This document shows positions 6,456-28,524 of a stretch of 32,000 nucleotides of DNA, in pieces (the first letter of the stretch is position 1; the number at the start of each line of letters is the position of its first letter). The DNA comes from Candidatus Saccharimonadota bacterium. Its GTDB lineage: Archaea > Micrarchaeota > Micrarchaeia > Micrarchaeales > Micrarchaeaceae. The position numbers were made by a program, and so were the translations under genes. The stretch spans positions 1,020,001-1,052,000 of the forward strand of contig OY970071.1 in the NCBI GenBank assembly GCA_963705375.1, read 5' to 3'. The notes below the pieces were generated by a model. The model was given only the letters and a program-made list of their open reading frames with translations. It was not told the origin of the DNA and ran no database searches.

Positions 6456-8381
6456 ATGACCAGAGAGCATAAGCCTCCACTTACTGAGAAGGTTCACGAA
6501 TCTGGGCCTAAGCGGGTTCCAGTAGATGAGATCTTTAAAGCCGAAGCCTGCGCATTGGGATATTCGCAGAAAAAACTGGCGAAAGTAAAGAAAGATTATG
6601 CAGATTATGTTTCGGAACTTATGGATTCGATATCTGTTTGGCTTGGTTTCAAAGAAGTTGCTAAGCTCGATTCTGCAGATCGGCAAAGGCTTGCGAAGGT
6701 GGTTAGGAATGCTGATGAAAGTGCGCTGTTCAAGTATATCACTAGTTTGTCCCAAAGTTACGTCAAGTCCCCGTATGAACGTGCCAGCCTGCTGATCACT
6801 GCAGTCGAAGAAGACAAATTCTACTGCTATAGTGCAACAGTCCTGCTCGCTGATGCTCTTATACAGCTTGGAAAGCCTGTCACAATCATTGCTGCCCCTG
6901 GGCACATCCTTCTGAGCGGCAAGAAGTGGGTGCTTGAGATCATAAATGAAGAAGAGCGCGATATCTTAGATGTCCGTTCAAGAGAGGAGATTGAACGACG
7001 TTATTCAAAGCAAGAGCGGTGGGAGGGTGGAATGGAAATTTTGCTCTCAGTAGCATACATGGGGTGTGGAAGCAAACTTAGAGAACGGGGAAAATTTCCA
7101 GAAGCACTCGTTGCGTATGACACAGCGATAAGACTGAATCCGAAAGATACAGACGCATGGAACAACAAAGGCTTCACACTTGGCAAGCTGGGAAATACGA
7201 ATGCTGAACTCGCGGCTTATGACAGGGCAACAGAACTGAACCCGCGAGATACGATACCATTGTATAACAAAGGAATTACGCTCAATGGGATGGGCCGAAA
7301 TGAAGAAGCACTCGCAGCCTTTACTAAAGTAATAATATCAAATCCAGAAGATGCAGATGCATGGTACAACGCAGGAAAAGTATTCGGCAAGATGGAAAAG
7401 TTTAAGGAAGCTATTTCGGCCTATGAAACTGCTACAAAACTAAACCCAAAAAATGCATATATATGGAGCGACAAAGGGATCGTGCTCCTCAAGATGAGAA
7501 AGCCTAAGGAAGCGCTCGCGGCCTGTAACGCTGCTATAAAACTAAACCCAGAAAACGCAGGGGCATGGAACAACAAAGGTCGCGTATTCAATTATATGGG
7601 AAAGATAAAGGAGGCGCTCACGGCCTGTGACACTGCAATAGAACTGGACCCGAAGCTTGCGGGTGCATGGTACAGCAAAGGAATGGCACTCTACAAGATG
7701 GGAAAGATGAAGGACGCGATCTTGGCCTTTGACGCTATGACAAGACTGAATCCCAAAGATGTTGATATGTGGCTTTACAAAAGTAGCGTATTTCAAGATA
7801 TTGGAAAGATAAAGGAAGCGCTAGCCGCCTGTAACACTGCTATAAAACTAAACCCGGAAAACGCTGCTGCATGGAACAACAAAGGAAACGCGCTAGAAAA
7901 GATGGGAAAGATGAAGGACGCATTCGTGGCCTATGATAGAGCGATAGAACTGGACCTGGAAGACGAGTATGCCTGGTGCAACAGAGGAATCCTGCTCTAT
8001 GATGTAGGAATGTTGAAGGAAGCGCTCATAGCATGTGATACCGCGATAAGGCTAAAGCCGAACTATACGGAGGCATGGAACGTCAAAGGGAACATATTAA
8101 CTGATATGGGGAAGTTGGAGAAAGCACTCTCGGTCTTTGTTAAGGTAATATGTCTGAACCCCGGGTACGCGAAAGCATGGAACAACAAAGGAAACGTGCT
8201 CCGCAAGATGGGGAAGATGAAGGAGGCTCTCGCAGCCTACGACGCTGCAATACGGTTGGATCCAGAAAATGCTAGAACATGGAGCAACAGAGGCTACCTG
8301 CTCCGCAAGATGGGGAAGACATTTGAGGCTGAAAAGTGCTTTAAGAGAATGAATAAACTCAGAAAATCCTTTCAGAAATAG
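6456..8381 (+). CDS. TPR-repeat protein with an N-terminal transglutaminase-like (Transglut_core2/SirB1-like) domain
   Basis: 13 back-to-back 34-aa TPR units with no indels from aa 200 to the C-terminus (AWNNKG...LGK..EAL.AYD.AI.LNP). The N-terminal YCYSATVLLADALIQLGKPVTIIAAPGHILL resembles the Cys...PGHF core of transglutaminase-like/TPR proteins. Confidence 0.85.
   Translation: MTREHKPPLTEKVHESGPKRVPVDEIFKAEACALGYSQKKLAKVKKDYADYVSELMDSISVWLGFKEVAKLDSADRQRLAKVVRNADESALFKYITSLSQSYVKSPYERASLLITAVEEDKFYCYSATVLLADALIQLGKPVTIIAAPGHILLSGKKWVLEIINEEERDILDVRSREEIERRYSKQERWEGGMEILLSVAYMGCGSKLRERGKFPEALVAYDTAIRLNPKDTDAWNNKGFTLGKLGNTNAELAAYDRATELNPRDTIPLYNKGITLNGMGRNEEALAAFTKVIISNPEDADAWYNAGKVFGKMEKFKEAISAYETATKLNPKNAYIWSDKGIVLLKMRKPKEALAACNAAIKLNPENAGAWNNKGRVFNYMGKIKEALTACDTAIELDPKLAGAWYSKGMALYKMGKMKDAILAFDAMTRLNPKDVDMWLYKSSVFQDIGKIKEALAACNTAIKLNPENAAAWNNKGNALEKMGKMKDAFVAYDRAIELDLEDEYAWCNRGILLYDVGMLKEALIACDTAIRLKPNYTEAWNVKGNILTDMGKLEKALSVFVKVICLNPGYAKAWNNKGNVLRKMGKMKEALAAYDAAIRLDPENARTWSNRGYLLRKMGKTFEAEKCFKRMNKLRKSFQK
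7053..8378 (+). repeat. coding tandem array, 13 x 102 nt (TPR units)
   Basis: Strict 34-codon periodicity. Some units are near-identical at DNA level, e.g. gctataaaactaaaccc(a/g)gaaaacgc...gcatggaacaacaaagg at about 7534-7580 and about 7840-7886. Confidence 0.85.
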
Positions 8382-10734: not shown

Positions 10735-11124
10735 TCAATCACACGCATAAAGACACAGCACACTGTACGTGCCGTTTACCGATACTGGATAGCACCGTTC
10801 TTGATACATCGAACAGTATCGCTCCGAGCCTCTCTCGGCTGTTTTTCCTTCCTGTGACAGCCGCACATACTTCAGAGCGAATGCGCTGCGCAGACCTTCT
10901 GCAATCTCGAGCTCGCATTGCGTTTCAGCAGAAACAAAGCAAGCCTTCACGCTATCGTTATGATACAGCATGTTTCCAAAGTCGTAGAGCGCATTGCCGA
11001 TGTCGAAGTCATAGCTTCGCTGCGTGGCTGGCGATGCATACAGTATGTTTGCGGAGAGGCTTGCTATCGCTGACAATATGACCAATGAGAGCAGAACCTC
11101 AAGCATGGCGGCCTGTGCCTTCAT
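10735..11124 (-). CDS. pilin-like protein with class III signal peptide
   Basis: N-terminus MKAQAAMLEVLLSLVILSAIA: short basic leader, Q at +1, Glu near +5/+6, then a hydrophobic helix. 4-nt spacer to the upstream gene. Confidence 0.7.
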   Translation of the reverse strand: MKAQAAMLEVLLSLVILSAIASLSANILYASPATQRSYDFDIGNALYDFGNMLYHNDSVKACFVSAETQCELEIAEGLRSAFALKYVRLSQEGKTAERGSERYCSMYQERCYPVSVNGTYSVLCLYACD

Positions 11125-11128
11125 GTGA

Positions 11129-12433
11129 TCACGTTACATTTACTGTAGACCCTTGCACTGAGATTAGCTGGTGTGCGGCACCGCTATGGTTGAGAATCGC
11201 ATCTATGCTGTAATAGAGGACGGACAATGGCTTGCACGAATAGCGCAATCCAGAACCTTGTACTACAAGGTTGCAGTTGTCATCGCTGGTAGTGTGACCT
11301 GATGTGATGAATCTCAACGCTGTGGAGTTGAGTGCATTCACCGCCTCATTTGCAGCATCAACGTTGCCGTTAGTGTTGTTGTAGTAGTTCATTACCGAAA
11401 CAAGGTTGTTCAAGGCTTGCTGGTATGCGTTGTAATTGCTCATGTTCGTCTGCCATCTGCCCTTTGTAGTGTTCACCACAACGTAATTCTCATAATCTTG
11501 TGGACCTGTCCCGCTCACGCTTTCTACGCTGGCTGTGCCACAGCTAGTCCCTCCGGCGCCGACCACTGTGGATATCTTGTTTGTGTTGCCGATTTCAGAG
11601 CTAAGCGTCTCACTCCTATTCCAGAGCGAGAGCGTGATATTGTATTCATATGATTGTGATGCCTGCACCTGCCTTACTGATGTGTTCGTAGGAAACAGCT
11701 CTACACAATAAGTCAATGCAGGGCTGTAGTAATTCCAATAGCAGTAGTTGTTATGCACAAACAAGTACCAGTTCGCACCGCCGCACTGGTCCTTGATCGG
11801 GAGCTGGTGCCCGTATATGTCTATGAAGCTGCAGTGGCTCCAAATACTGACAGTGTATATTGGTGATGCGTTCGAAATACCGTACAATACGGACTCGTTG
11901 CGCCTGTTTATGCTTGCCGAAAATGAGTATCCTGACTGCGTTGTTTGGTTCTGCCCCTGCAGGACTGCGAAGCTTTCGGCGGTCAAATTCCTAATGAAAG
12001 TGCCGTTGGCGTATTCTATCCCGACACTCACATTCAATGGGCCTTGCTCTGTCGGGACCACCGAAAATGGCAGTATCTCCGTGCCAGAAACGCTGATGTT
12101 GCTGTACGTGCTAGGCGTGATGCCGTATTGTTGTGAACCGATCGCTTTCAGATTCAGAAGTGCGCTGGCCCTTTGCAATGCGACAACGATCTGCAAGGCA
12201 TTGCTCTTGTTTACATACGATACATTCGGCATGCTGGCATAGAGGAATATCGTGCTGTTTGCTTCAGACGGTACGTCCGCAGGCACATTCACATCTGCGC
12301 TCCTGTTAATGACGCTGGCGTATGCGCTGCGCTGCTGTCGGAGAAGGCCGGAATATGCGCTGATCGCAAACACGCCGAATGACGCAACAGCGCTTAGCAG
12401 TATTACAAACTCAAGAGTAGTTTGCAATTTCAT
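11129..12433 (-). CDS. large pilin-like surface glycoprotein (class III signal peptide plus ~400-aa sequon-rich domain)
   Basis: MKLQTTLEFVILLSAVASFGVF at the internal ATG 12433 (track start is 12451). About 20 N-x-S/T sequons by hand count. Cys-containing extracellular domain. Confidence 0.7.
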   Translation of the reverse strand: MKLQTTLEFVILLSAVASFGVFAISAYSGLLRQQRSAYASVINRSADVNVPADVPSEANSTIFLYASMPNVSYVNKSNALQIVVALQRASALLNLKAIGSQQYGITPSTYSNISVSGTEILPFSVVPTEQGPLNVSVGIEYANGTFIRNLTAESFAVLQGQNQTTQSGYSFSASINRRNESVLYGISNASPIYTVSIWSHCSFIDIYGHQLPIKDQCGGANWYLFVHNNYCYWNYYSPALTYCVELFPTNTSVRQVQASQSYEYNITLSLWNRSETLSSEIGNTNKISTVVGAGGTSCGTASVESVSGTGPQDYENYVVVNTTKGRWQTNMSNYNAYQQALNNLVSVMNYYNNTNGNVDAANEAVNALNSTALRFITSGHTTSDDNCNLVVQGSGLRYSCKPLSVLYYSIDAILNHSGAAHQLISVQGSTVNVT

Positions 12434-12764
12434 GTCGATACACCTTTGCATAATATACGGTGCCTCCTATCACAAGCATCCTTGACGCTAATACGTCGCC
12501 TGCGTCCACAGCGCTTGCATTCGAACTTAACGTGTATGCGTCGCCGAACAGGGTGCGCATTGTTTCCTGTGCGTGGTCTGGTGTGGGATTTGACGAACCA
12601 AAGGCGGCATCGACTTCTTGCAGCCTGGAGTTTGCCGCAAACGATGACGCATACGCCTTCGCTGCGCTCACGTTGCCGTACTGGCTGCATAACAGCTGCA
12701 GCACCAAAACAGGCAGCGCTAGCGAGAATGCCAATATGCCTGCCAATGTGTCCAATTCGATCAT
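12411..12764 (-). CDS. small pilus-operon protein with hydrophobic N-terminus (possible pseudopilin)
   Basis: ATGA overlap with the upstream gene. N-terminus MIELDTLAGILAFSLALPVLVL. Chosen over three other overlapping ORFs because of this coupling and its composition. Confidence 0.5.
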   Translation of the reverse strand: MIELDTLAGILAFSLALPVLVLQLLCSQYGNVSAAKAYASSFAANSRLQEVDAAFGSSNPTPDHAQETMRTLFGDAYTLSSNASAVDAGDVLASRMLVIGGTVYYAKVYRHEIANYS

Positions 12765-12964
12765 CTATGTGCCTCGACAACGTTCACATATGCATTTTCT
12801 TGAGCGCCAGGCAGTGCGCTTGAGTTGACGTATGCATTCCTGATAATAACGCTGGAACCTTGGTAGTATCTGTGCACGCCCGCAAACAGGAGCAAGACGA
12901 ACAGCACAAATGACACTGCCAAAGCGAGACTTGTGAAGCTTTCCGCCAGCAGCTGTGCCTTCAT
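12761..12964 (-). CDS. small pilin-like protein with class III signal peptide
   Basis: MKAQLLAESFTSLALAVSFVLFVLLLF (Q+1, E+5). 1-nt TAATG overlap with the upstream gene. Confidence 0.65.
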   Translation of the reverse strand: MKAQLLAESFTSLALAVSFVLFVLLLFAGVHRYYQGSSVIIRNAYVNSSALPGAQENAYVNVVEAHR

Positions 12965-13344
12965 TAGCCCGCACCCTCCAATGCATATGTTCCGTTTGAA
13001 AGCCTGGTGAGTTTCAGGTGTTCAATGCCTCCCGGCGCGCTGCATGCAGACGTGCCTATAGTCAGATTGCCATCGATGCGCAACGTTTCGAAGGTTACTC
13101 TCATCACATCGCCGTGAAACGTGCCATTGCATATGCTCGAAGGCATAACCGCGTAGAAATCGCTGCTCTCATAAGCCATATTCGCGTTTATCAGCGCAGC
13201 AAGCTCTTCCACATATGTCCTGTTTGTGCTTGAAACCTGGATTCTTTGCACGTATAGGAATGATGCTATCGCCGACACGGTCGAGGCAGCGGCTAGTGCC
13301 GTATAGAGCATGAACTCTAGTGAAAGCTGCGCCCTCACAGACAC
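12964..13344 (-). CDS. pilin-like protein with class III signal peptide
   Basis: GTG start. MSVRAQLSLEFMLYTALAAAS (R-A-Q, E at +5, F at +6). Confidence 0.7.
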   Translation of the reverse strand: MSVRAQLSLEFMLYTALAAASTVSAIASFLYVQRIQVSSTNRTYVEELAALINANMAYESSDFYAVMPSSICNGTFHGDVMRVTFETLRIDGNLTIGTSACSAPGGIEHLKLTRLSNGTYALEGAG

Positions 13345-13360
13345 GCCTGTTTTGTGGCAA

Positions 13361-13561
13361 TCACCGTGTGCTGCTCGAAAGATTGCTCAGTTCTTTCGAG
13401 AGCTGCATCACCACGCTCTGGTTCGTTCCATTGGCGAACGCGTGCATGGCCGTGCCCTTGAGCTGCATCACCATGGCCAGGGCTATGACAATGACGATGC
13501 TCACGGCAGAGAGCATCATTATGTACTCCAAAGAACCCTGTCCGCGCATCGACCTTGCCAT
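13361..13561 (-). CDS. Flp-like mini-pilin (66 aa), candidate major filament subunit
   Basis: MARSMRGQGSLEYIMMLSAVSIVIVIALAMV fits the Flp motif G/XXXXEY followed by a hydrophobic helix. It is the 3' 66 codons of the 207-aa track ORF 13361-13984, whose 5' part overlaps the real gene 13612-14382. An alternative ATG lies at 13603. Confidence 0.7.
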   Translation of the reverse strand: MARSMRGQGSLEYIMMLSAVSIVIVIALAMVMQLKGTAMHAFANGTNQSVVMQLSKELSNLSSSTR

Positions 13562-13611
13562 TGCGGCTAGTGCTACGATCTCATTTTTGTACAGTATTTG
13601 CATTTCATCAC

Positions 13612-14382
13612 CTATAACATTCCAATCGATAATGCTGACGCAATCTTGAATACGAATATTGCGACGGCGCACGAGAGCGCAGACTTCTGTGCCCTTACAG
13701 TGGCGCTTTCCCTCATGTCGTATTTGAAATTGAGCATGTTTGAGTATGAAATGAAGAAGGCAAACACGGCAGTAAGTGCTTGTGCGCTTGGACTGCCTGA
13801 ACTCTGCATGATTGCAGTGAATTTCAGTATGTTGAGGCTTATCCCTGCAAATATCGGGAAGAAGAGGATGGCGCCTATCCGAGTCACGGAGAGCAGGCTC
13901 CCTAAGGTTCGTGTGTTCTTGAGTTCGTTGCCGTTTCTCTGCGCAATGTGTTTTCTGAGCTCCAAAAACTGCATGCGCAAGCATGCGCCATTGTCTAGTC
14001 TGCTTGTCACTGCAGAAACTATGCCCTTCATAGCATAGCTGTTATAACCGAGTAGCACGGAAAATGCCTGTCTTGCGTTTGAAGAGAGTCTGTACGTGCG
14101 TATTGCACGCTGCATATCCTTGCAGAATGCGAACCTATCGTTTAGTGACTTTTCCAGCAGTCCAAGTGTGCTTGCAGAGTCCGAGTAGTTCTCAAGCACG
14201 CTGTCGATGAACTGGACTGCATCTCTATCCACAGCGTTTGCACCAGCACGGCGCACCTTCGAAGCCGCTATGGAACACAACGTGCATGCCACAAGCAGCA
14301 CCGCTGCAACAGCTATATTGCCTGCAAGCGCTAGGGCTACGCAGAATATAGCAGCGATGCAGCATATTGTCTCATATTTCAT
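13612..14382 (-). CDS. type IV filament platform protein, TadC/EpdK-like (single T2SSF-like domain)
   Basis: N-terminal hydrophobic helices, a helical cytoplasmic domain of about 120 aa, then 3 C-terminal TM helices. Sits directly downstream of its paralogue and the ATPase. Architecture-based call only. Confidence 0.6.
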   Translation of the reverse strand: MKYETICCIAAIFCVALALAGNIAVAAVLLVACTLCSIAASKVRRAGANAVDRDAVQFIDSVLENYSDSASTLGLLEKSLNDRFAFCKDMQRAIRTYRLSSNARQAFSVLLGYNSYAMKGIVSAVTSRLDNGACLRMQFLELRKHIAQRNGNELKNTRTLGSLLSVTRIGAILFFPIFAGISLNILKFTAIMQSSGSPSAQALTAVFAFFISYSNMLNFKYDMRESATVRAQKSALSCAVAIFVFKIASALSIGML

Positions 14383-15094
14383 ACAGACCAGCCGTGTGTG
14401 CCCTTACAAGCGCAAAAATGTTCGGTATGATGATCAGCATCACAACGCAGAATATCGAGAGCAGCATGTGCGAATAGCATATCATAGAGTAGCCTGTAAA
14501 TGTGAACACAGCAAACGAGGGCAGCACTGTGCCAACTGCCATGCTAATGGTTAGATATCTCTGCAATCTTCCAGCATTCCTCGCATCTTCCATTTTGATT
14601 ATGCCAGTGAGCCTATCGTACGCATTCTTTACTGCGAGGACCGGATCGCGTCCGTTGGCATATTCTCTACCAACATCTCTCAGCGGTGCGCAAGCCGCGT
14701 AGGACCCCGCACATGTAGTCTTGATTGCATCATCCAATTGCGCGCCAAGAAGCAACCTTTTCCTGATGCCGGACAACAGGCGGTGCGCCATGGTGCACGT
14801 GCTTACATCCATCACTTCGAGCGCATCATTCATGCCTGCTATGAATGATTTTCCTGCGTACCTGGCGCTCGAATAAATCTGCTGTAGGCCAAACATTACG
14901 GCATCACGCTCCTCAGAGTATTCTGCTTTCTTGTAGAGCTCGAATTCAGAGATCGATACTGCTAACATCATCGGAATTCCTGTGAGAATGCCCAGCTCCA
15001 CGCCATAGGTTCCGACGAACGTACCGATTATTAAAAGTGCAAACGTTATTGCTGCTGCGTTAAATAGTACCATGAACACAAGCCCTTTCTTCAT
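14372..15094 (-). CDS. type IV filament platform protein, TadB/EpdJ-like (single T2SSF-like domain)
   Basis: Same TM / helical domain / TM architecture as 13612-14382. ATGA overlap with the ATPase gene. Confidence 0.6.
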   Translation of the reverse strand: MKKGLVFMVLFNAAAITFALLIIGTFVGTYGVELGILTGIPMMLAVSISEFELYKKAEYSEERDAVMFGLQQIYSSARYAGKSFIAGMNDALEVMDVSTCTMAHRLLSGIRKRLLLGAQLDDAIKTTCAGSYAACAPLRDVGREYANGRDPVLAVKNAYDRLTGIIKMEDARNAGRLQRYLTISMAVGTVLPSFAVFTFTGYSMICYSHMLLSIFCVVMLIIIPNIFALVRAHTAGLYEI

Positions 15095-16620
15095 TTTGGC
15101 ACTCCGTAGTTTGCTATTTGCTCACTGAGGTCTGCTTCGCCGCACTCCATCAGTTCTTTTAGGAAAGCCGCGCGTGACCTTAGCTCCTTTATCACAACAT
15201 GTGTCCTAAGTCCGTGCATCTTTGCGTATTCACCGACAACTTTTGATCCGTAGAGCGCATCGTTCGATATCGTACCATCCTTTGCAATGTATGACACTCT
15301 GCACTCTTTGGGATCTGGGCCATCTATGCCTATTTCGTTCCTGCTAAGCCATCTGAATTCTGCTATGCTCTCCAATTTCCTCGATTGCATGCCCTTTTGC
15401 CTCATGAAGGCCGCAACATCGAGCATTGCTATTAGGTTCTGCTCAACACTCATGGGCTTTGCCTGCAGCCTACTCACTATGGCGTTGCCGTTGTCGCTGC
15501 TGTGCATCGTGGTCATGAACGGTATTCCGAAGTTCGAGCCGGAAAGGACCTCGCCAGCCTCATTGCCGCGTATTTCCCCGATAATAAGGCGGTCCGGCCG
15601 CAAGTGCAGCGCGTTTATAACCTGCTCCTTGAGCGATGCCCTGCCTCTTATGCTGGATCCTTGCAGCGAGACCATGTTTGTGAAGTTGCTGTACTGCCTG
15701 AGCTCGTTTATGTCCTCCTCGATCGTGATCACACGTGAGTACTGTGGTACAAACGCATTGAGTGCCAGCAGAAAAGAGGTCTTGCCGGCTGCAGGTGCGC
15801 CAGCTATGACGATATTTAAGTTGCTCTCTATCGCAAGCCACAGATACGCGAGCTCTTCCGGAGATGCGGTACCAAGCGTCAATATGCGCATTATGTCCAT
15901 ACGCTTGCCGCCGTTGAGCCTTATCGTCGCAAGCGCCCCATTCACCGAATACGGTTTTAGCTGTGCATGGATCCTTGAGCCATCGTTGAACTGGGCGTCT
16001 ATTATCGGCGTGCTTGAGTTGATCTCCCTCTCTGTTGACGCAAGCATCTTATTGAGCATGTACCTGAAGTCCCTTTCGCTGTTGAAGCGCATGTTTGTGG
16101 TGCAGTAGCCATAGGTGGCGTGGTATATGCCTATCGGTGCTGTCGGCGCATTTATCACAATCTCCTCTATGTTCTGCTGGTCCTCCATCAGCATGCTTAT
16201 CGGGCCGAAGCCTACGGTATCGTGCGCTATCATTTGCGCGAGCAGTTCCTTGCTTTCATTTGTGCAGTACTTGCCGAGCATGCCCGTAACAGTCTGCTGT
16301 GCCTTGCATATGCTCTCCTTGGAATATTGGATCTCTGGTCCTTTTGAAAGGGCGTCTATTGTCTCACTCTTAACTCTACAGGCTACATCCATGTCTCTGC
16401 TGTCTAGGTTTAGTGCGAGCAGCGCGTACACGCGCCGCTGCCCCGTGTCTCCTATTGCCATGTTTCCGTTCGACCAGATAACTTTCTCAGGGTAATCCTG
16501 GACAACGGAGAAGCACAAAGATGTAGGCTCATGCTCATCTGCTGTGCTTTGAGGGGTGCTTCTGCCAATCAGGCTTATAAGTCTCATAGGAAATTTAACG
16601 TAATCCTTTATACCTGACAT
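15091..16620 (-). CDS. type II/IV secretion-family (TadA/FlaI/PilB-like) assembly ATPase
   Basis: Walker A GAPAAGKTS, Asp-box region ITIEEDINEL, Walker B region PDRLIIGEIRGNEA, His box TTMHS. Variable N-terminal domain. Confidence 0.9.
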   Translation of the reverse strand: MSGIKDYVKFPMRLISLIGRSTPQSTADEHEPTSLCFSVVQDYPEKVIWSNGNMAIGDTGQRRVYALLALNLDSRDMDVACRVKSETIDALSKGPEIQYSKESICKAQQTVTGMLGKYCTNESKELLAQMIAHDTVGFGPISMLMEDQQNIEEIVINAPTAPIGIYHATYGYCTTNMRFNSERDFRYMLNKMLASTEREINSSTPIIDAQFNDGSRIHAQLKPYSVNGALATIRLNGGKRMDIMRILTLGTASPEELAYLWLAIESNLNIVIAGAPAAGKTSFLLALNAFVPQYSRVITIEEDINELRQYSNFTNMVSLQGSSIRGRASLKEQVINALHLRPDRLIIGEIRGNEAGEVLSGSNFGIPFMTTMHSSDNGNAIVSRLQAKPMSVEQNLIAMLDVAAFMRQKGMQSRKLESIAEFRWLSRNEIGIDGPDPKECRVSYIAKDGTISNDALYGSKVVGEYAKMHGLRTHVVIKELRSRAAFLKELMECGEADLSEQIANYGVPK

Positions 16621-19057: not shown

Positions 19058-22000
19058 CTAATGGCATGTGGTGCTCGAGCTGCTTATCCAAGCGCAGCCG
19101 GAATTGCCCGAGCAGGCGTTGTTGCCGTTGTCTATGTCGCTGCTCAGGGTGCTCTGCGACGAATACGTGCAGACCAGGCCTTTACCGGTCAGCAGCACGT
19201 TGTCCTTGAATGTAGATGCCGTAGTGTTGGAAAGCAACATGCCAGTCCCTGTGCTGCTCCCTGCTGTGTTGTTGTTTATCGTTATCCCTATAGAATTGGC
19301 AATCTGGTATGCCGTAGATGCAAGCGCAACGATGTTGTTAAGCAATGAGCTGTCCCTGCTGGATGCGATGCTTATGCCTTTGTACTGTGTTGTGATGTTG
19401 TTTGATTGTATGTATGAGCTGTAAGCGTTTGTCATTGCTATCGCTGCATATGTGGCGTTGCTGTCAGCTATCCTGTTGTTCCGGACCGTTAGACTCGATC
19501 CGTCTGCCACTATCGGTCTCGTGAAGCCCTTTAGCGTGCAGTTCTGAATGTTTCCGCCGTTAGAATCCTTGAAGTCAGCGAAAGTGCCTCCTTTTGTTGC
19601 TATGATTGTGTGGCCGTTGCAGTTTATTGTCGTGCCATTGGCGTACACATTGAAGCACGTTTCACCGAAATCGTACCGTCCGTCTCTTTGGAGTGTGTAT
19701 GTATTTGGCTGCAGCACTGCCTGGCACGAAACCTGCGTGACTCCTGCCATCAATGCGGCAAGCCACTGGCACCCCATCTTCTTGTTGCCGTAGTTTATGC
19801 CTCCTAGTTCGTCATTTATGCCGCTGTTGCCGTTGCACAGGTAGTCCGTGTAACCGCTTAGTCGCATCGTGTTGTTCATGACTGTGTTGTTGTGTGAACT
19901 GCCTGCGAATTCGATGCCTATGTAGTTGGTCGCACCGGTGTTGTTTGTTATCCTATTTGTCTGCGAGTTGTTGATCAGTATCCCGACGTTTTTGCCGACT
20001 CCGTAGGATACGTTATTGCTTATGATGCTGCTCATCGAAACGTGCGAGAGTTTTATCGATGCGTTCGATGCGATCGCGACAATGTTATCCTCTATTGCGC
20101 TTCTGCTGACATTGCTCATGCTTACGCCATAGTTCGAGCTGTTCACGAGGTTTCCATACACGCCTACGTATGATGAGTTTGATATGTTGATGCCGCTAGT
20201 TGCGCCCTGTATGTTACAGTTCCCTATTATGATGTTGCTCCTGCCGTTGACGTATATGACCGGGCCCGGCGCGCTGTTGGCTTGGGATATTGAATGTCCT
20301 GCGCAGTTTAACGTGACGTTGTTGGCGTTCACCGTTATGCACATCGGTGCAGGATTGATTATGTTCGCAGTCAACGAATAGTTGCCTGGTCTGCTCAATG
20401 TCGAGCAGCCGCTGATGGGATAGTATGTTAAAGAGGATGAAACGTGCTGGTTGCAGCTTGCCCACTTGGTGTTCGTCAACCCGCACGTTGCCTGCTGCAT
20501 CAAGTTGTAGCTCGCGTTAACCGAATCGGGAGTTGCGTAGACGTCTATGGCCGAGTTGTTGAACGCGGTTCCCTTGCTGAATAGGTTGCCGATCGACTGG
20601 CTCAAAAATATTCCGTACTGGTTCTTGGAGCTATTGAATCCCAAAAAGCTGTCCGCGCTTGCGCCATACAGGTATATGCCGTACCTGTTGCTGCTGCTCC
20701 TTATGTTGCTCGCTGCAGATGACGTTACATTGTACAGGTATATGCCAAACGTGTCATTCATGAAGGTCATGTTTTTTACATGCGCTTCCGTGGCATCCAT
20801 CAGCTGCACGCCATAATTCAACTTGGTTACGCTGCAGTTCGCTATCGTTACATTGCTTCTGCCGCTGTCTAGTATGCCAACGGTGCCATTGCTTATCTGG
20901 AAACCTTTGCAATCGAATGTGGCGTTGTTCGTATTTACTGCGATGCAAGGCATGTTGGATTTTATGAACGCGGGGTTGAGCGTGTTCGTGAACGTTGATA
21001 TGTCTATACTCGAAGCAAGCTGGTAGCTGCCTGGCGAGGTTATTGCGCCGCAGCTGTTTATTCTGCTGCCAAGGTGCTCATCTGAGAGGTTCGCAGGCTT
21101 GTTTATGCCGCCGCATGTGACAAACGAGCAGCCAGTGCTGTTGTAGCAGTAATTTCCGTGCGCATAGCTGCTTCTCGGGAAGCTGCTCAAGATGTTGCAG
21201 TAGAATGATGCAGGATTGTAGTTCAGCGTGTTGTTTACGTACCTGTTGCCCGTTGAATTTATGTGTATCCCGTAGAATCTGTTGTCTTCTATGCTGTTGT
21301 TGTAAACCCTGTTGTTGCTTGATCCGTTTGTAATGTAGAGTGCGCCATATGTGCTGGAAGTCCTGGTCATGATGTTGTTGAGTATGCTGCTATCCTGCGT
21401 GTTGTTAAGGTACGTATCTGAAAGGTAATTCGACGAGATGTTGCTATCGTGTATCGAGAGGTCCCTAGAGGCACGCGCATACACGCCATATGAGAAATAA
21501 GACACGGTGCATCCCGACACTGAGACGTTGGTCTGCGAGTTGATCTCGATTCCGTAAGTGAATGGCGGCACCCCCGAGTACGGTCCAGAGCCCAGTATGC
21601 TGTGCTGGTTGCACACCAATGCCACGTTGCTGACCGTGATATTTATGCACGCGCCGCTGGATATTGCTGTTTTTATATTTCCTGAGAGGTAGTAGCTTCC
21701 TGGGTTGGTGATCGCTCCGCAGGCCTTTATCGAACCTACCTTTATGGCTTGCATCGTCGTGCTTGCCGTTGTTGTGCCCTGCGGCTTATGCATGACCATG
21801 AATGCTCCTTCTATGGCAACTATTGCGATCGCTATGGCGATGATGATGGTGCGTATCGATATGGTCGGTAATTGCAGTGCGGGCTTTTGCTGCCCTGACG
21901 GCTTCTGGGGCCCAGCCTGTTTCTGTGCTTGCGGCGGTGTCTGTGTCGGTGCCTGTGCAGGGGCCTGTGGCGGAGCCTGCGGCGTCCCTGTGCCTGCCGG

Positions 22001-22063
22001 AGTGCCCTGGCCTACTGTTGGCTGTTGGGTGTTATAAATAAAAGGAATGTATGTCTGATACAT
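19058..22063 (-). CDS. giant surface protein: P/Q-rich N-terminal tail, one TM helix, four tandem right-handed beta-helix (NosD/PbH1-like) modules
   Basis: Each module opens with C-x-(A/T)-(I/L)-x-x-P-(G/N)-x-Y-x-L, found at track aa 137, 360, 575 and 802. PbH1-type repeats are present, e.g. NNSIEDNRFYGIHINSTGNRYVNNTL. Dozens of N-x-S/T sites. Start moved to ATG 22063 (MYQTYIPF...) because the track start at 22129 overlaps tRNA-Thr. Confidence 0.8.
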   Translation of the reverse strand: MYQTYIPFIYNTQQPTVGQGTPAGTGTPQAPPQAPAQAPTQTPPQAQKQAGPQKPSGQQKPALQLPTISIRTIIIAIAIAIVAIEGAFMVMHKPQGTTTASTTMQAIKVGSIKACGAITNPGSYYLSGNIKTAISSGACINITVSNVALVCNQHSILGSGPYSGVPPFTYGIEINSQTNVSVSGCTVSYFSYGVYARASRDLSIHDSNISSNYLSDTYLNNTQDSSILNNIMTRTSSTYGALYITNGSSNNRVYNNSIEDNRFYGIHINSTGNRYVNNTLNYNPASFYCNILSSFPRSSYAHGNYCYNSTGCSFVTCGGINKPANLSDEHLGSRINSCGAITSPGSYQLASSIDISTFTNTLNPAFIKSNMPCIAVNTNNATFDCKGFQISNGTVGILDSGRSNVTIANCSVTKLNYGVQLMDATEAHVKNMTFMNDTFGIYLYNVTSSAASNIRSSSNRYGIYLYGASADSFLGFNSSKNQYGIFLSQSIGNLFSKGTAFNNSAIDVYATPDSVNASYNLMQQATCGLTNTKWASCNQHVSSSLTYYPISGCSTLSRPGNYSLTANIINPAPMCITVNANNVTLNCAGHSISQANSAPGPVIYVNGRSNIIIGNCNIQGATSGINISNSSYVGVYGNLVNSSNYGVSMSNVSRSAIEDNIVAIASNASIKLSHVSMSSIISNNVSYGVGKNVGILINNSQTNRITNNTGATNYIGIEFAGSSHNNTVMNNTMRLSGYTDYLCNGNSGINDELGGINYGNKKMGCQWLAALMAGVTQVSCQAVLQPNTYTLQRDGRYDFGETCFNVYANGTTINCNGHTIIATKGGTFADFKDSNGGNIQNCTLKGFTRPIVADGSSLTVRNNRIADSNATYAAIAMTNAYSSYIQSNNITTQYKGISIASSRDSSLLNNIVALASTAYQIANSIGITINNNTAGSSTGTGMLLSNTTASTFKDNVLLTGKGLVCTYSSQSTLSSDIDNGNNACSGNSGCAWISSSSTTCH

Positions 22064-22111
22064 AACAAGCACTAATTTAAAACTGTTGAATGCTAATCTA
22101 TTTAATTGCGT
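22064..22111. promoter_or_regulatory. 48-bp spacer with back-to-back TATA-like boxes (beta-helix gene / tRNA-Thr)
   Basis: The spacer reads taatttaaaact ... tctatttaattgcg, i.e. TTTAAA- and ATTTAAT-type boxes on both strands. Confidence 0.4.
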
Positions 22112-22185
22112 GCCTCGGTAGCTCAGCATGGTGGAGCGACCGTCTCGTAAGCGGTAGGTCGGGGGTTCAAATCCCTCCCGAGGCT
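22112..22185 (+). tRNA. tRNA-Thr: tRNA-Thr (anticodon CGT)
   Basis: Hand-folded: acceptor GCCTCGG/CCGAGGC, D stem GCTC/GAGC, anticodon stem ACCGT/GCGGT, loop CTCGTAA, T arm GGGGG-TTCAAAT-CCCTC. 74 nt, no CCA encoded. Confidence 0.9.
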
Positions 22186-22266
22186 TTTAGGTAAGGCTGC
22201 CGATTTCGTCGAGGCTTGGAGCAAACTTCTATTGGTGCCCTTCATCGCTCCATTGCACAAACGACC

Positions 22267-23859
22267 TCATGGGATGCATGAAACTGGGCCGGTCCATGTA
22301 AGCGTCACGCTGCCGCCGCTGCCTCCGCTACCGTCGTTAGGTCCTCCTGCACCTCCGGTGCCAGTTCCTCCCTCATTAGAACCTCCGCTGTTGCCTGGCG
22401 CTCCTCCGTTGCCTCCGAAGCCACCTCCGCCACCGCCTGAGATACTGCCGCCGCTACCAGAAGACCCACCAGCAGAGTTATGGCCGCCTCTGCCCCCGCT
22501 TCCGTTATCGCCCGTGCCGTCACCGCCTGTGTAGAGAGTTCCATAAGTGTCGGAACCACCAGACCCGCCAAAAGATGCATAATAGCCATTACCGCCATTA
22601 CCACCTGGGGTATTTGCAATTACTTGTCCATTTATCAGTATGGCAGAACTTCCACCACCTCCGCCACCGCCACCCATACCATGAGTGCCGCCACCGCCTC
22701 CCTGATATCCGCTGCCGCCTCCACCTCCGCCGCCACAGGCACCATAACAGCTGTACATCCATCCACCTCCCCCTCCTCCTCCGCCAGCATAGATTGCAAT
22801 TACATTAGTAGGTTGTATGGTAAAGCTGCCACTACGTGCGACTCCGTTACTACCTGGAGAGCCATCACCAGCTTCAGAATTCCAATATGACCCTCCTGCG
22901 CCACCTCCTCCGCCGCCATACATCGTATAGCTGATCGTTGCCGTGATTGGCGAAGTGTATAACGCATTACTTGTGATTTCAAGCTCGCATGGGAAAGCGG
23001 TTACGGAGTTGAAGTGCGCAACCATATTAACCGTATTCGATGGCATTGTGAACGTGCACGAATCTGAATGGCCTGGGCACACGTCTCCTGTCCAACCGCT
23101 GAATGCATAGCCGTCGTCCGGTATCGCATTCACGGTGATCGTGTTTCCTGCAGTGTAGCTTCCACCACAGGCGTATGGATCGCAAACAGTGCACGAATCT
23201 GGAATGCATAACACTGAGCCGTCAGAGCCTGCGGTCGCGGATAAAGAGTATGCAGAGGGCGGTATGGTCGTAGTTGCTACGGTCGTAGTCCCTATTGTGG
23301 TGGTTCCTACAGTCGTAGTCCCTACTGTGGTGGTTGCTACTGTCGTAGTTCCGCCATGTGTAGCTGCTCCGTTCATAAGCACTTTAGTGTTCACCGTGCC
23401 CACTTGCGAGACCAGGCCGCTCTGTGTTCCTTGACTGTATCTCATCCAGAGTGTTCCCGAGAACGGAGTGCCTAGAGCGTTTGAAGACAGAGGACAGTTG
23501 AAAGCGACGCTTGCAATCTGTGAAGGTGGAAGGGAGATGCTGTTCGTTAGTGTCGACCAAGCGGAAGGTTCTCCAGCGGTGCTGGAGCATCCAAAGTCTG
23601 TGACTGTCAGAGTGCTGCTGCTGGCTGTCTGACCTATCGAAGTCAGCAGAAGGCCATTACCCTCTAGTATGGGGTTGCTGCAGAGATATCCTATCTGGCT
23701 TACACAAGAGTTGGTACTGCCGCTTCCTGGAGCTGAGAACACGCCAAGTGCAAACAGCGAGGCCAGCACGACGGCGATTATCAGAATGGCCCACCCATAT
23801 GTCATGAGGTACTCCATCGCGGACTGGGCCTTCACAAGTTTAAGAATACGTTTCTCCAC
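22267..23859 (-). CDS. pilin-signal fusion protein: class III signal peptide and pilin-like head, Thr-rich linker, InlB B-repeat-like domain, ~200-aa glycine-rich domain
   Basis: GTG start. MEKRILKLVKAQSAMEYLMTYGWAILIIAVVL (Q+1, E+5, Y+6). Six TTTV(A/G) units. GGSYTAGNTITVNAIPDDGYAFSGWTGD. Gly-rich blocks of the type YTMYGGGGGGAGG ... IAIYAGGGGGGGG ... SSAILINGQVIANTPGGNGG ... VTLTW. Confidence 0.8.
   Translation of the reverse strand: MEKRILKLVKAQSAMEYLMTYGWAILIIAVVLASLFALGVFSAPGSGSTNSCVSQIGYLCSNPILEGNGLLLTSIGQTASSSTLTVTDFGCSSTAGEPSAWSTLTNSISLPPSQIASVAFNCPLSSNALGTPFSGTLWMRYSQGTQSGLVSQVGTVNTKVLMNGAATHGGTTTVATTTVGTTTVGTTTIGTTTVATTTIPPSAYSLSATAGSDGSVLCIPDSCTVCDPYACGGSYTAGNTITVNAIPDDGYAFSGWTGDVCPGHSDSCTFTMPSNTVNMVAHFNSVTAFPCELEITSNALYTSPITATISYTMYGGGGGGAGGSYWNSEAGDGSPGSNGVARSGSFTIQPTNVIAIYAGGGGGGGGWMYSCYGACGGGGGGGSGYQGGGGGTHGMGGGGGGGGSSAILINGQVIANTPGGNGGNGYYASFGGSGGSDTYGTLYTGGDGTGDNGSGGRGGHNSAGGSSGSGGSISGGGGGGFGGNGGAPGNSGGSNEGGTGTGGAGGPNDGSGGSGGSVTLTWTGPVSCIP
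23263..23349 (-). repeat. coding 15-nt tandem repeat (six TTTV(A/G)-type units, Thr-rich linker)
   Basis: aa 171-199 of the fusion protein read TTTVATTTVGTTTVGTTTIGTTTVATTTI, mirrored by ggtcgtagt/gtggtggtt periodicity in the DNA. Confidence 0.8.
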
Positions 23860-24130
23860 ACAAAACTCCCGCTCTTTTTATGAGCAATGTATGCATCGCC
23901 AACAAACAATAAAAAGCTGAGCCTTCTGCCGTGTATGTAAAACCTCTGTGCAATACGGCGCCCCGATACATGATGTTACTATGCTTCTACAATTACCTTA
24001 CTGAGGGTCCTATCTGTGCCTTCTTCCTTTCCTACATCAGACCACTTAAGCAGCGTGCCTTTCTCTATGTGCTTCCATCTTGAAAACTATCTTGGTGCTG
24101 TTGCAAGAATTTGCAGAATCTAAAAAGACG

Positions 24131-26141: not shown

Positions 26142-26651
26142 GTGGCTGGCGATAGAATCACCGAGGTTAAGCCGAGGATGGGATTTTTGTGGTCCATCTT
26201 CCTTATCATATGGATAGTCATAGGCCTGATACTCCTTGCGGTACTGGTTCTCGGAACCCTGGCCATGATAGCCCTTCTGCCAAAAATATCAGGTGCACTA
26301 AGCACAGTTAGTGCCCTGTCAAGTCTTGGTTCGGGCACAGGCGGCGTCACCGGAAACAACAACTATGGTGGATCCAGTTTGAATGGCTCTGGCAGTGGAA
26401 ATCAATCTGCGAGCAATGCACAGAGTTATCTGGCGAGCCTTGCGCTCCAGATGCAGTCTGATGTCAACCAAGGAAACTGGAGTGCGGCTGGTAACGAGAT
26501 GAACACGATACAAACTGTGCTATTGCAGATACCTCCGTCAAAGCTACCTTCAGGTCTAATGCAGGCGATCACTAAGCTTAATCAGTCGATAGCTGACAGG
26601 AACGCAACAGCATTCAATAACATCTTTAATCAGCTGAGCACGAGCTCATGA
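26142..26651 (+). CDS. small membrane-anchored protein, unknown function
   Basis: One or two N-terminal TM helices, a G/S/N-rich linker and a helical C-terminal domain. Start uncertain (GTG 26142 or ATG 26178). Confidence 0.5.
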   Translation: MAGDRITEVKPRMGFLWSIFLIIWIVIGLILLAVLVLGTLAMIALLPKISGALSTVSALSSLGSGTGGVTGNNNYGGSSLNGSGSGNQSASNAQSYLASLALQMQSDVNQGNWSAAGNEMNTIQTVLLQIPPSKLPSGLMQAITKLNQSIADRNATAFNNIFNQLSTSS

Positions 26652-26706: not shown

Positions 26707-28524
26707 TTGGCTTCAGACGACTCACAAGAACCTGGCACTCCAGAACAAGGTGCGCCTCAGGAACAGGCAGCTCCGCAAGAACAAGGCTCTCCTGTCGAGC
26801 AAGGTGCGCCAGAGCAGGCGCCCGAACCTGAAATGCAACCGGAACAAAAGCCAGTAGCTGCATCAGAAAGCGAGGCTGAGGCAGGTGCTCAAGGAGAAGC
26901 AGGGGCAGAACCGAAGCCGAGTGTCAAACCCAGAAAGCGTCGCGTATCTACGAAAACACCTGAAATCGTAAGTGCTGAGAAGGTCCAATTCCTGCCAAAA
27001 TCCCAAAGCACTCTCACAGAAGCGGAGAATCCGATAGCGTCTGAATCTGCTGCAGGCTCTGCTGAAAATGTTGCCGTGAGCGAATCCGAGCACAATGAGA
27101 TGCCTCCTGAATCCGCTACTGTTCTGCCAACTGAACCCCTTATTGAGCAGCCACAGGCGCAGAACGGGCCATCTGGTCAGGGGCATGTGCAAGGATCGGC
27201 TGTGCCCAAAACAGCAGCAGAAACAGGCGCGCAGACTTCTGATATAAAAGAAGCCGAGCCAAAGCGGAAGGTCCAGTCCAGGGTCAAGCGCGTATCTAAA
27301 AGGAAACCGAAGAAACTCGGACGTCCAACAAAAATTCAATCCATGCTTCAATCTAAGGCAGAGACCACAGAAAAAATAGCTGCTGCAGAGACCAAACCCG
27401 TGCCTGGTGCTGTTGAAGTGTCACGTTCTGCCGAAAGCGTGCCTACGTCCGAATTTACATCAGAAGTGCCTTCTGTGTCTGCTGCAAAGCCAGAGGTCGG
27501 CAAGGTTCCGGAAACTCAGACCGCCGCGGAAATAGCACTAATGCCCGAAGAGCACCATTACACTGCCGTAGTGCATGAACCTGAACACGTCGAAGCTGCT
27601 TACAAGTCGACCGAAACGGAATTCAAATCCGCTTCAGGAGGCAAATCAGGAGCGACTGTCCTTGTGCAGTCTGCCCATGAAACTGGCGAATCCCATAAAA
27701 CGACAAAAGAACCTGAACCTGGTGCAGGATTGGGTGCTCTGAAAGGAGTATTCGTACTTCTTGCTATAATCGTCTTGGCTGCGCTGTCGCTATTGTACGC
27801 ACAGAATCACAATCTGTTAGCGAACGTGATGTATGCAAATGTCCTTGCTATTCACAACGCAAAAACCACCTTAACAACCGTGCCGGCCAATGCATCAAAT
27901 GCGATAGTTCAGACGGGCAACATCACTGCGAACAGCATTGTGGTGCATGCAAACAACGTTTCGTACTATGGGAACAACACTATAAAGATATCCGGAAATG
28001 TCTCTCCAGTGCCGACAGCTTCTGGTTATGCTGTTGTTGTCTCTGTCACGAACCCAAACGGTTTGTTGGTCGAGGGGGTTGAGCTGCCGCTCTCTGCATC
28101 GGGTCGGTTCGAGACGAGCTTCATTGGCGGAGGTACCGGTTCATGGATCAACGGCACCTACACAATAACCTCTATCTGCTGTGGGCAGAACACCAATTCG
28201 ACTTTCAAGTGGACTACAGCGAAACCGCAGCCAGTGATAGGTCCAATCATCCTTACGCTATGCTCCGTATACGCAAAGGCGCGCAACGGAATGTTCATGC
28301 TGTGCATACTGCTGATGGTGTTCGGCGCCACAATGTACTCTCTGGCTCAAGTGATGCCTGCCTCGCACAAAAAATCGACTGAGAGTTATGGCCTTAGCAT
28401 GATAGTGGGCTCAATCATAGGGATGACGCTGGCGCTGCTAGCACCATATATACTCAAGGCTATTGTTGGCAATTCATTGCCTGTGGCTTCGTGCGCATCC
28501 GGCTTGCTGGCTGTTCTTGTATGA
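26707..28524 (+). CDS. membrane protein with ~340-aa acidic P/E/Q/A-rich tail, TM helix, sequon-rich Ig-like ectodomain and C-terminal multi-helix hydrophobic module
   Basis: The ORF opens after a stop at 26686-26688. The first possible start is TTG 26707, and the first ATG is 26830. Low-complexity PEQGAPQEQAAPQEQGSPVEQGAPEQAPEPE. TM helix GLGALKGVFVLLAIIVLAALSLLYA. Three or four hydrophobic helices at the C-terminus. Confidence 0.65.
   Translation: MASDDSQEPGTPEQGAPQEQAAPQEQGSPVEQGAPEQAPEPEMQPEQKPVAASESEAEAGAQGEAGAEPKPSVKPRKRRVSTKTPEIVSAEKVQFLPKSQSTLTEAENPIASESAAGSAENVAVSESEHNEMPPESATVLPTEPLIEQPQAQNGPSGQGHVQGSAVPKTAAETGAQTSDIKEAEPKRKVQSRVKRVSKRKPKKLGRPTKIQSMLQSKAETTEKIAAAETKPVPGAVEVSRSAESVPTSEFTSEVPSVSAAKPEVGKVPETQTAAEIALMPEEHHYTAVVHEPEHVEAAYKSTETEFKSASGGKSGATVLVQSAHETGESHKTTKEPEPGAGLGALKGVFVLLAIIVLAALSLLYAQNHNLLANVMYANVLAIHNAKTTLTTVPANASNAIVQTGNITANSIVVHANNVSYYGNNTIKISGNVSPVPTASGYAVVVSVTNPNGLLVEGVELPLSASGRFETSFIGGGTGSWINGTYTITSICCGQNTNSTFKWTTAKPQPVIGPIILTLCSVYAKARNGMFMLCILLMVFGATMYSLAQVMPASHKKSTESYGLSMIVGSIIGMTLALLAPYILKAIVGNSLPVASCASGLLAVLV

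Follow-up and report, generated by a model that had tools for sequence, protein, structure and literature searches.

A probable modular type IV pilin of Micrarchaeota with two cargo domains, an InlB-type B-repeat and a divergent ALK/LTK-like glycine-rich domain

Architecture of the protein

In a 32,000-nucleotide stretch of Micrarchaeota DNA (contig OY970071.1, positions 1,020,001 to 1,052,000; hereafter the window), one gene on the reverse strand, at 22267..23859, appears to encode a modular archaeal type IV pilin that presents its cargo on the filament, and we put the probability of this reading at roughly 60%. The coding sequence (530 aa plus stop, GTG start at 23859) is defined by the list of open reading frames (ORFs) and by a seven-sequence full-length alignment. 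Its product is a modular pilin-like protein in which a class-III-type N-terminus and a hydrophobic helix lead into a beta-sandwich head, followed by a Thr-rich linker, a B-repeat and a Gly-rich domain. An original prediction, made from the letters of the DNA, had placed pilin N-terminus, head, Thr linker, B-repeat and Gly-rich domain in this same order and was right in every part. Residues of this target protein are numbered below from the GTG at 23859, and all of its features lie on the reverse strand.

The same five-part architecture is found in six further full-length proteins, all assembled independently from metagenomes. These align with the target end to end at 45-58% identity, the non-Gly strands being conserved across all seven sequences. 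The members of this family that we encountered in databases are named 'hypothetical protein', and an exact look-up of the target protein in public assemblies gave no record. The Gly-rich part might in principle be a low-complexity disordered tail or, as the original prediction had allowed, an assembly artefact. Such an explanation would suit the low predicted local distance difference test score (pLDDT <50) of aa 438-505, as well as single-sequence phmmer searches of the PDB, which returned artificial GGGGS linkers only (matches that we rejected as compositional). Against this, the frame is intact, and at least 20 independently assembled proteins keep the pattern of strands and poly-Gly. The Gly codons are mixed (GGC 36, GGA 29, GGT 25, GGG 5), and Tandem Repeats Finder (TRF) reports just four short repeats and no long one in the Gly-coding DNA. 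Furthermore, the core of the domain has high pLDDT and strong profile homology to PF12810 domains. We therefore reject the assembly artefact, and disorder or artefact together retain a negligible probability. A Pro-rich ORF at 22232-22534 (+) is an antisense reading of the target's Gly codons.

The pilin module

The protein opens with a leader peptide, MEKRILKLVKA (aa 1-11; 23827..23859), read from the sequence and predicted to be removed by a prepilin peptidase after Ala11. The junction reads MEKRILKLVKA|QSAMEYLMTYGWAILIIAVVL (also MEKRILKLVKA|QSAMEYLMTYGWAILIIAVVLASLFALGVF), and the mature protein would begin QSAMEY, with Gln at +1, Glu at +5 and Tyr at +6. Two features expected of an archaeal class III signal are present: a short basic leader that closes with [KR][GA] and is followed by Gln+1 and Glu+5, and a hydrophobic helix of about 20-30 residues after the cleavage site, which AlphaFold places at aa 14-37 within the mature N-terminus QSAMEYLMTYGWAILIIAVVLASLFA (aa 12-37; 23749..23826). 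In type IV pilins, the hydrophobic N-terminal helix forms the core of the filament. The motif QSAMEYLMTYGW / QSAMEYLMTYGWAILII, or a slight variant of it, is kept in 102 of the 104 proteins of our homologue set irrespective of the cargo downstream, behind leaders of 2-70 aa that mostly end in [KR][AL] ahead of QSAMEY. Two candidate GTG starts lie in frame, at 23859 (leader MEKRILKLVKA) and at 23835 (leader MKA, resembling that of many homologues), and the pilin signal is preserved from either. A GGGAG motif is found 6 nt 5' of the GTG at 23859, and the stretches near 23874-23882 and 23905-23912 are A/T-rich and TATA-like.

We scanned all six frames of the window for [KR]-x-Q-x3-E ahead of a hydrophobic stretch and found the target site and two sites in a candidate pilus operon described below, MARSMRG|QGSLEY at 13561 and MKL|QTTLEF at 12433. 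A third operon ORF with the signature, MSVRA|QLSLEF, was recognised by eye, and the fourth pilin-like ORF of the operon, MKA|QAAMLEV, has its Glu at +6. The Q+1/E+5/Y+6 likeness to the operon pilins that had been pointed out earlier is thus common to three of the four ORFs (QGSLEY, QLSLEF, QTTLEF).

The helix is followed by a pilin head, a beta-sandwich of about 115 aa (aa 49-165; 23365..23715) with invariant Cys52 and Cys60, in agreement with the pilin-like head that had been proposed. It is supported by the structural model, by Foldseek and by homology to stand-alone pilins. The AlphaFold model of the target, built from a 42-row alignment, has a mean pLDDT of 72.8, with the helix at aa 14-37 and the beta-sandwich at aa 51-162 modelled at pLDDT about 90. 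With Foldseek, the pilin part matched the archaeal type IV pilin of Pyrobaculum calidifontis (8fk7_A; probability 1.0, TM(target) 0.47), a moderate match that supplies the globular beta-sandwich head expected of such a pilin. It also matched generic helix-plus-Ig proteins, e.g. TRAP subunits. The P. calidifontis pilus (8FK7) shares with the target the succession of N-terminal helix and beta-sandwich head, but there is no detectable sequence similarity between the two and the target has a 330-aa extension.

To place the module among its relatives we used a one-genome-per-species scan, which returned more than 516 related stretches. The best 80 of these come nearly all from Candidatus Micrarchaeota metagenome-assembled genomes (MAGs), often several per genome, and at least seven lie in the single MAG YP2.bin58. 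Our set of 81 related loci holds 107 complete ORFs with the pilin motif, of which 46, nearly all from Micrarchaeota MAGs, are stand-alone proteins of 149-190 aa counted from Gln+1. Each of the 46 matches aa 12-160 of the target over its full extent, with E as low as 5e-30, and stops where the linker starts. Since these stand-alone pilins equal the N-terminal 160 aa of the target, we conclude that the latter consists of a pilin module with grafted cargo. This is the make-up of a modular pilin, the extra domains being PF18998 and a glycine-rich domain (GRD).

Could the N-terminus instead be an ordinary Sec signal peptide or signal anchor with a superficial resemblance to pilins? The Pfam class III signal model gives it no score, and a possible signal-peptidase-I-like site, VFS|A, can be read after the hydrophobic stretch. 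However, Sec signal peptides are poorly conserved, yet QSAMEYLMTYGWAILII is near-identical in the 102 homologues despite their unrelated C-termini. The K-A|Q...E+5 pattern recurs in the operon pilins of the window, and the model of helix plus beta-sandwich fits an archaeal type IV pilin structure. Extreme conservation over unrelated C-termini fits a helix that packs in a filament core and not a Sec signal peptide, and we consider the latter very improbable. An ordinary Sec signal without a prepilin site had been named at the outset as the finding that would undo the pilin assignment; what we see is a near-invariant QSAMEY motif and a pilin-fold match.

The main rival to a filament pilin is a surface protein with a class III signal that is processed by prepilin peptidase and does not polymerise. 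As proposed for the sugar-binding proteins of the Sulfolobus 'bindosome', its helix would anchor it in the membrane or in a short pseudopilus, with the B-repeat and the Gly-rich domain held at the cell surface. Archaeal class III signal peptides on non-pilin cargo have indeed been described for substrate-binding proteins, and there, too, a prepilin-type N-terminus puts a functional domain on or near type IV filament machinery. The genes of the present family are dispersed and seldom lie beside pilus ATPases, and many paralogues with differing cargo occur per genome, both of which would suit such proteins. In bindosome proteins, though, signal and helix are joined directly to the substrate-binding fold, whereas the target carries other cargo and retains a complete pilin head beyond signal peptide and helix. 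The 46 stand-alone pilins, themselves likely filament subunits, consist of this same module, and the N-terminal helix is conserved far beyond what a simple membrane anchor needs. We therefore regard a non-polymerising surface protein as doubtful, if the most serious of the alternatives, and prefer a modular type IV pilin.

Linker and B-repeat

Head and cargo are joined by a flexible Thr-rich linker (aa 166-200; 23260..23364) with pLDDT <50 and 54% Thr. The six TTTV(A/G) units that the original prediction had counted are present at aa 171-199 (TTTVA TTTVG TTTVG TTTIG TTTVA TTTI), and the DNA that encodes them is a 15/30-bp tandem repeat at 23267-23352 by TRF. The length of the linker differs among homologues, and it is probably O-glycosylated.

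The next segment (aa 204-285; 23005..23250) had been said to resemble a divergent InlB B-repeat, and this is borne out by Pfam: PF18998 scores 52.7 bits on the target against a cut-off of 23.6 (E=4.3e-14), i.e. above the gathering threshold, and is present in all seven members of the target family. AlphaFold models beta strands here at pLDDT about 80. The related check with TIGR02543 (List_Bact_rpt) stayed under its cut-off, at 18.1 vs 20.95 bits. Searches with Pfam (at E<=10), NCBIfam and PHROGs covered the whole protein as well as its first 153 and its last 247 aa by themselves, and the B-repeat was the only match.

The glycine-rich domain

The Gly-rich region spans aa 289-530. With 242 aa and 39% Gly it is larger and less dominated by Gly than the '~200-aa, mostly Gly' domain of the original prediction, which was correct as to the presence of such a domain. 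Between its six poly-Gly runs of 5-8 residues lie short hydrophobic strands. Three parts can be distinguished. In the core (aa 289-437; 22549..22995; 36% Gly), beta strands (ISYTMY, SFTIQPTNVIAIYA, SSAILINGQVIAN) alternate with poly-Gly. The distal part (aa 438-516; 22312..22548; 51% Gly) has GGxGG-type repeats that can be aligned across the family although its pLDDT is below 50, and it presumably forms further polyglycine-II helices. The domain ends in a closing strand and tail (aa 517-530; 22270..22311; SVTLTWTGPVSCIP) with a conserved Cys528, of which the strand at aa 517-524 is confidently modelled. The archaeal family keeps the corresponding motif, GGSVTLxW..C, and so do bacterial proteins that join the domain to a prepilin N-terminus (see below). 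Every aligned family member has one Cys close to the domain's first strand and one close to its last (Cys291 and Cys528 in the target; positions slightly shifted in two subgroups), a pair that may be joined in a disulfide clasp. Part of the alignment also has a CxxxC loop (Cys371/Cys375).

Modelled separately with AlphaFold, as had been suggested, aa 286-530 gave a predicted template modelling score (pTM) of 0.76, with a folded core (aa 289-437) at pLDDT 75-96, a confident closing strand and low confidence for aa 438-505. When this model was compared to the PDB with Foldseek, the 12 best matches were all GRD/TG structures of ALK or LTK (7NX3, 7LIR, 7NX1, 7NX4, 7MZY, 7NWZ, 9G5I and 7NX0; probability 0.90-1.00, E 4e-3 to 0.1), while the 13th had E>1. 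ALK/LTK GRD structures are the sole significant fold matches of the domain, modest as these matches are.

Sequence profiles point in the same direction. A profile of 20 Gly-domain sequences (A3), searched against 1.84 billion cluster representatives, matched 294 proteins at E<=1e-3, 75 at E<=1e-10 and 21 at E<=1e-30. Two giant proteins among these are scored by Pfam as PF12810 (ALK_LTK_GRD) on the same regions, P0128 with E=4.7e-85 and P0139 with E=1.3e-35. At library scale (Z=1.8e9), the per-domain E over nearly the whole A3 profile was 7e-6 for P0139 and 1e-6 for P0179. The strands line up one by one in these alignments: 'tisytlyGGGGG / VAVKLWGGGGGG', 'GsfsisagstltvyvGgGG / TTVAFNVTAGDFIRVEVGQGG' and 'GGGGssailvng / GGGGSTRIYING'. 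Consistent with this, hhalign of the 20-sequence family alignment against 24 prokaryotic PF12810-type domains gave 98.0% probability (E=2.8e-13, 108 columns), which supersedes an earlier, shallow comparison (7 sequences vs 14 and vs 2) at 14-22%. Searched against PDB sequences, the family profile reached ALK chains at E about 0.06, in a low-bias stretch and in the same register. Single-sequence phmmer searches of the C-terminal domain against PF12810 proteins were not significant at library scale; only the profile works. Eight giants of 1241-2714 aa (P0128, P0130, P0132, P0139, P0167, P0168, P0175 and P0179) start with 'MADL...' or a variant (MPNL, MPT), and each of them is matched by the Gly-domain profile in two to seven separate stretches.

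Judged from these profiles and from the predicted structure, the Gly-rich domain is a folded, divergent relative of PF12810, the GRD of ALK/LTK, and not a Pfam-defined member of that family. Beta-sandwich strands and poly-Gly runs appear to follow one another in equal order in both, as can be seen by comparing ALK, 'YSISGYGAAGG... GIFNLEKDDMLYILVG... GGGGGGGGATYVF', to the target, 'ISYTMYGGGGGG... GSFTIQPTNVIAIYAGGGG... GGGGGGGGSSAILI' (TG supradomain; 7NX1, 7NX3, 7LIR, 7N00). They differ in that the target is not scored by the Pfam model, that identity is 13-24% at TM 0.26-0.29, and that the distal third of the target domain is unmodelled. In addition, the ALK/LTK GRD sits in a metazoan receptor kinase and the target is a prokaryotic surface or pilin protein, for which a ligand of the ALKAL type is not expected.

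The original prediction had been reminded of the glycine-rich domains of phage fibres and bacterial surface proteins. That comparison can now be replaced by a specific identity, as a relative of the ALK/LTK GRD, and a link to the phage protein S16 gp38 is unsupported: its polyglycine domain (6F45) is missing from the 50 Foldseek PDB matches listed, and PHROGs gave no relevant match. The likeness to S16 gp38, whose type of polyglycine domain has been reviewed (PMC13243192), is functional only, lying in a Gly-rich receptor-binding domain at the tip of a fibre, and we found no sequence link.

Exchange of cargo and bacterial counterparts

The pilin head is not tied to one cargo. Of the 104 homologues, 24 have the target-type Gly domain according to a local profile of aa 288-530, in every case complete and at the C-terminus, and a Gly-rich C-terminus of some kind follows the same head in 49. 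In 18 proteins the Micrarchaeota head bears PF21722 (Gly_rich_2) domains, and in P0050 and P0053 it bears PF12810 itself. Kelch repeats, LamG/PF13385 and further B-repeats are found as well. Such exchange among paralogues suggests a set of interchangeable binding modules displayed on filaments.

The domain also occurs on bacterial prepilins. Among the top 150 of the 294 GRD representatives, 30 have a pilin-type N-terminus, 20 of them archaeal and class-III-like and 10 of them bacterial prepilin N-termini; the N-methylation family PF07963 (N_methyl) is confirmed by Pfam in three of the latter. One example is a protein from a Bdellovibrio sp. MAG, MBC7421126.1 ('type II secretion system protein'), in which the Gly domain covers profile positions 8-267 (E=4.5e-21). 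A bacterial family of 300-360 aa starts 'AFSLAELMIVMLVLTIILAATMP...' and ends '...GGSVTLIYTTTASSCPF', with the Gly domain fused directly to the prepilin helix. Its members (P0163, P0166, P0176, P0177, P0178, P0187, P0196 and P0200) have the prepilin N-methylation motif 'AFSLAELMIVMLVLTIILAATMPILSKRAK', and their 'SSAIL' strand stands ahead of the 'VYVGGGG' strand, in another order than in the target, which suggests that this family carries a permuted version of the domain. Overall, the bacterial proteins share with the target the Gly domain family, down to the closing 'GGSVTLxY..C' strand, and a type IV filament N-terminus. They differ from it in having the PF07963 motif and, in the short family, in lacking the B-repeat and in the altered order of elements. 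As archaeal and bacterial prepilin N-termini are found on the same Gly domain, its fusion to type IV filament subunits has taken place in both domains of life, which argues for a functional pairing over chance.

Modular pilins are established in bacteria. A survey built on IPR012902 counts more than 1,200 of them in 264 architectures, and they act as adhesins (PMC8179133). Streptococcus sanguinis PilB (vWA module) and PilC (lectin module) (Raynaud et al. 2021, PMC8179133) resemble the target in their small pilin module, linker and bulky module presented by the filament. As in Micrarchaeota, many alternative cargos ride there on one kind of carrier, including LamG/PF13385, which is also found on the Micrarchaeota head. 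By contrast, the target is archaeal (Q+1/E+5, beta-sandwich head) and lacks the N-methylation motif IPR012902/PF07963, to which Pfam found no match, and the passages of the survey consulted here name no cargo of B-repeat and ALK/LTK-like GRD. In the literature that we searched with incomplete coverage (Micrarchaeota pilins, DPANN class III signals, PF12810/PF21722), no archaeal pilin with a full head and grafted domains is described, and neither is a pilin that carries an ALK/LTK-like glycine-rich domain. The earlier remark that this is not a described architecture thus stands for the literature searched. It does not for the sequence databases, where the architecture recurs (the 24 homologues above), and the design of grafted modules is established in bacteria. 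The target would extend the bacterial 'modular pilin' principle to archaea.

Possible function

Like other DPANN archaea, Micrarchaeota spend their lives attached to host cells, and pilins with swappable cargo (glycine-rich, Kelch, LamG) are concrete candidate adhesins for this attachment. For the target, we regard filament display and adhesion as plausible, the adhesin being our best guess, by analogy to the adhesive cargo of bacterial modular pilins (PMC8179133) and in view of the episymbiotic lifestyle (PMC5498576).

A possible course of events is as follows. A prepilin peptidase of the FlaK/PibD type would cut the 11-aa leader at KA|Q, after which helix and head could dock in a type IV filament like an ordinary subunit or the stand-alone paralogues. 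Given the 330 aa of cargo, the protein would most likely be rare in the filament or sit at its tip. The probably glycosylated linker may serve as a spacer that keeps the B-repeat and the rigid Gly-rich domain off the filament, and these two would form a distal binding surface, e.g. for the envelope of the episymbiont's host cell.

It is also conceivable that the Gly-rich domain has a structural or self-associating role, in filament bundling, in a matrix or biofilm or in passage through the S-layer, and does not bind a host. Polyglycine-II lattices are flat and rigid and serve structural ends in a number of unrelated proteins (PMC13243192), giant proteins of fibre-like appearance, with up to 5538 aa, contain the same domain in multiple copies, and the next gene downstream of the target codes for a probable surface protein of the beta-helix type (1023 aa). 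On the other hand, the domain binds a ligand in its sole functionally studied relatives (ALK/LTK), and the modular pilins studied so far bind through their cargo (PMC8179133). We consider a purely structural role improbable, and retain host binding by a filament-borne module.

A wider and more speculative possibility is that Micrarchaeota and, independently, some Bdellovibrio-like bacteria present polyglycine-II lattice domains of the ALK/LTK type on type IV filaments as exchangeable tip adhesins for contact with host or prey, and that the metazoan ALK/LTK ligand-binding domain descends from this prokaryotic surface-fibre module. We offer this tentatively. The relation of the target's Gly-rich domain to the ALK/LTK GRD in itself places a ligand-binding domain that, going by the PDB matches, has been structurally studied solely in animal receptors in a context of prokaryotic surface display.

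Genomic context

Candidate assembly machinery, a pilus locus of the Epd/system-1-like kind, lies at 10735..16620 of the window (-), assigned by Pfam and by motifs read from the sequence. It comprises, all on the reverse strand, a T2SSE secretion ATPase (15091-16620; E=7e-19), two platform-like membrane proteins of about 240-256 aa that have no Pfam match (14372-15094 and 13612-14382), a head-less Flp-like pilin of 66 aa (13361-13561; Class_IIIsignal 22.3 bits, just below the 23.7 cut-off) and three more pilin-like ORFs recognised by their motifs (12964-13344; 11129-12433, 434 aa; and 10735-11124). Two platform genes, a head-less major pilin and members in DPANN are features of system 1 (preprint 10.64898/2026.04.22.720090). 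The cultivated Micrarchaeota relative Mia14 encodes two type IV pilus systems together with a single FlaK-like peptidase, and its LamG-like proteins are expanded, with some encoded close to pilus loci (PMC5498576). Target and window ATPase are 5.6 kb apart, with a DNA ligase and the 1023-aa NosD/beta-helix protein between them. The homologue P0002 adjoins a T2SSE ATPase.

Several observations weigh against the interpretation of the target as a filament pilin with an ALK/LTK-like cargo. A pilus ATPase is found within 10 kb in just 2 of the 81 related loci and the family genes are mostly dispersed, so the proximity of target and machinery in the window may be due to chance. No prepilin peptidase (Peptidase_A24) gene is present among the window ORFs, and the N-terminal sequence of the operon pilins differs from that of the target. 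Neither Pfam PF04021 (Class_IIIsignal, 27 positions) nor NCBIfam matched aa 1-46 or the whole protein at E<=10. As to the cargo, Pfam PF12810 and PF21722 matched neither the target nor its six closest relatives even at E<=10, the fold matches to the ALK/LTK GRD are modest (best E 4e-3, TM 0.26-0.29, rmsd 6-8 Å), and the poorly modelled aa 438-505 make up one third of the Gly domain.

One related locus, in the Micrarchaeota MAG FK5.bin94 (L074, 2719-10531), has four QSAMEYLMTYGW-family pilin genes (171-280 aa) within 4 kb of a pilus ATPase homologue. It is the sole related locus found with such a pilin-ATPase cluster, and may well encode the cognate machinery of the target's pilin family.

Directly downstream of the target, on the same strand and after a gap of 137 bp, is the gene for the NosD/right-handed beta-helix protein (19058-22129, -; 1023 aa; five beta-helix stretches, E=4e-38), likely a surface protein, with a Pro/Gln-rich N-terminal region and one transmembrane segment. 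Part of the window's gene order recurs on the contig of the closest homologue (L001), where an AdoMet synthetase (74% identity) is followed by a PEMT-family methyltransferase; the beta-helix gene is absent beside that homologue. Elsewhere in the window, two adjacent ORFs of 169 and 605 aa (26142-26651 and 26707-28524, both +) match no Pfam family at E<=0.01. Archaeal-type genes include the AdoMet synthetase (PF01941) and the ATP-dependent DNA ligase; taken with the shared gene order and the Micrarchaeota homologues, they make a Micrarchaeota genome the most likely source of the window. Finally, a 641-aa protein at 6456-8381 (+) consists almost entirely of TPR repeats (12 TPR_1 stretches), and adjoins a PMT_2-family glycosyltransferase (4493-6091, -) that could bear on surface glycosylation.

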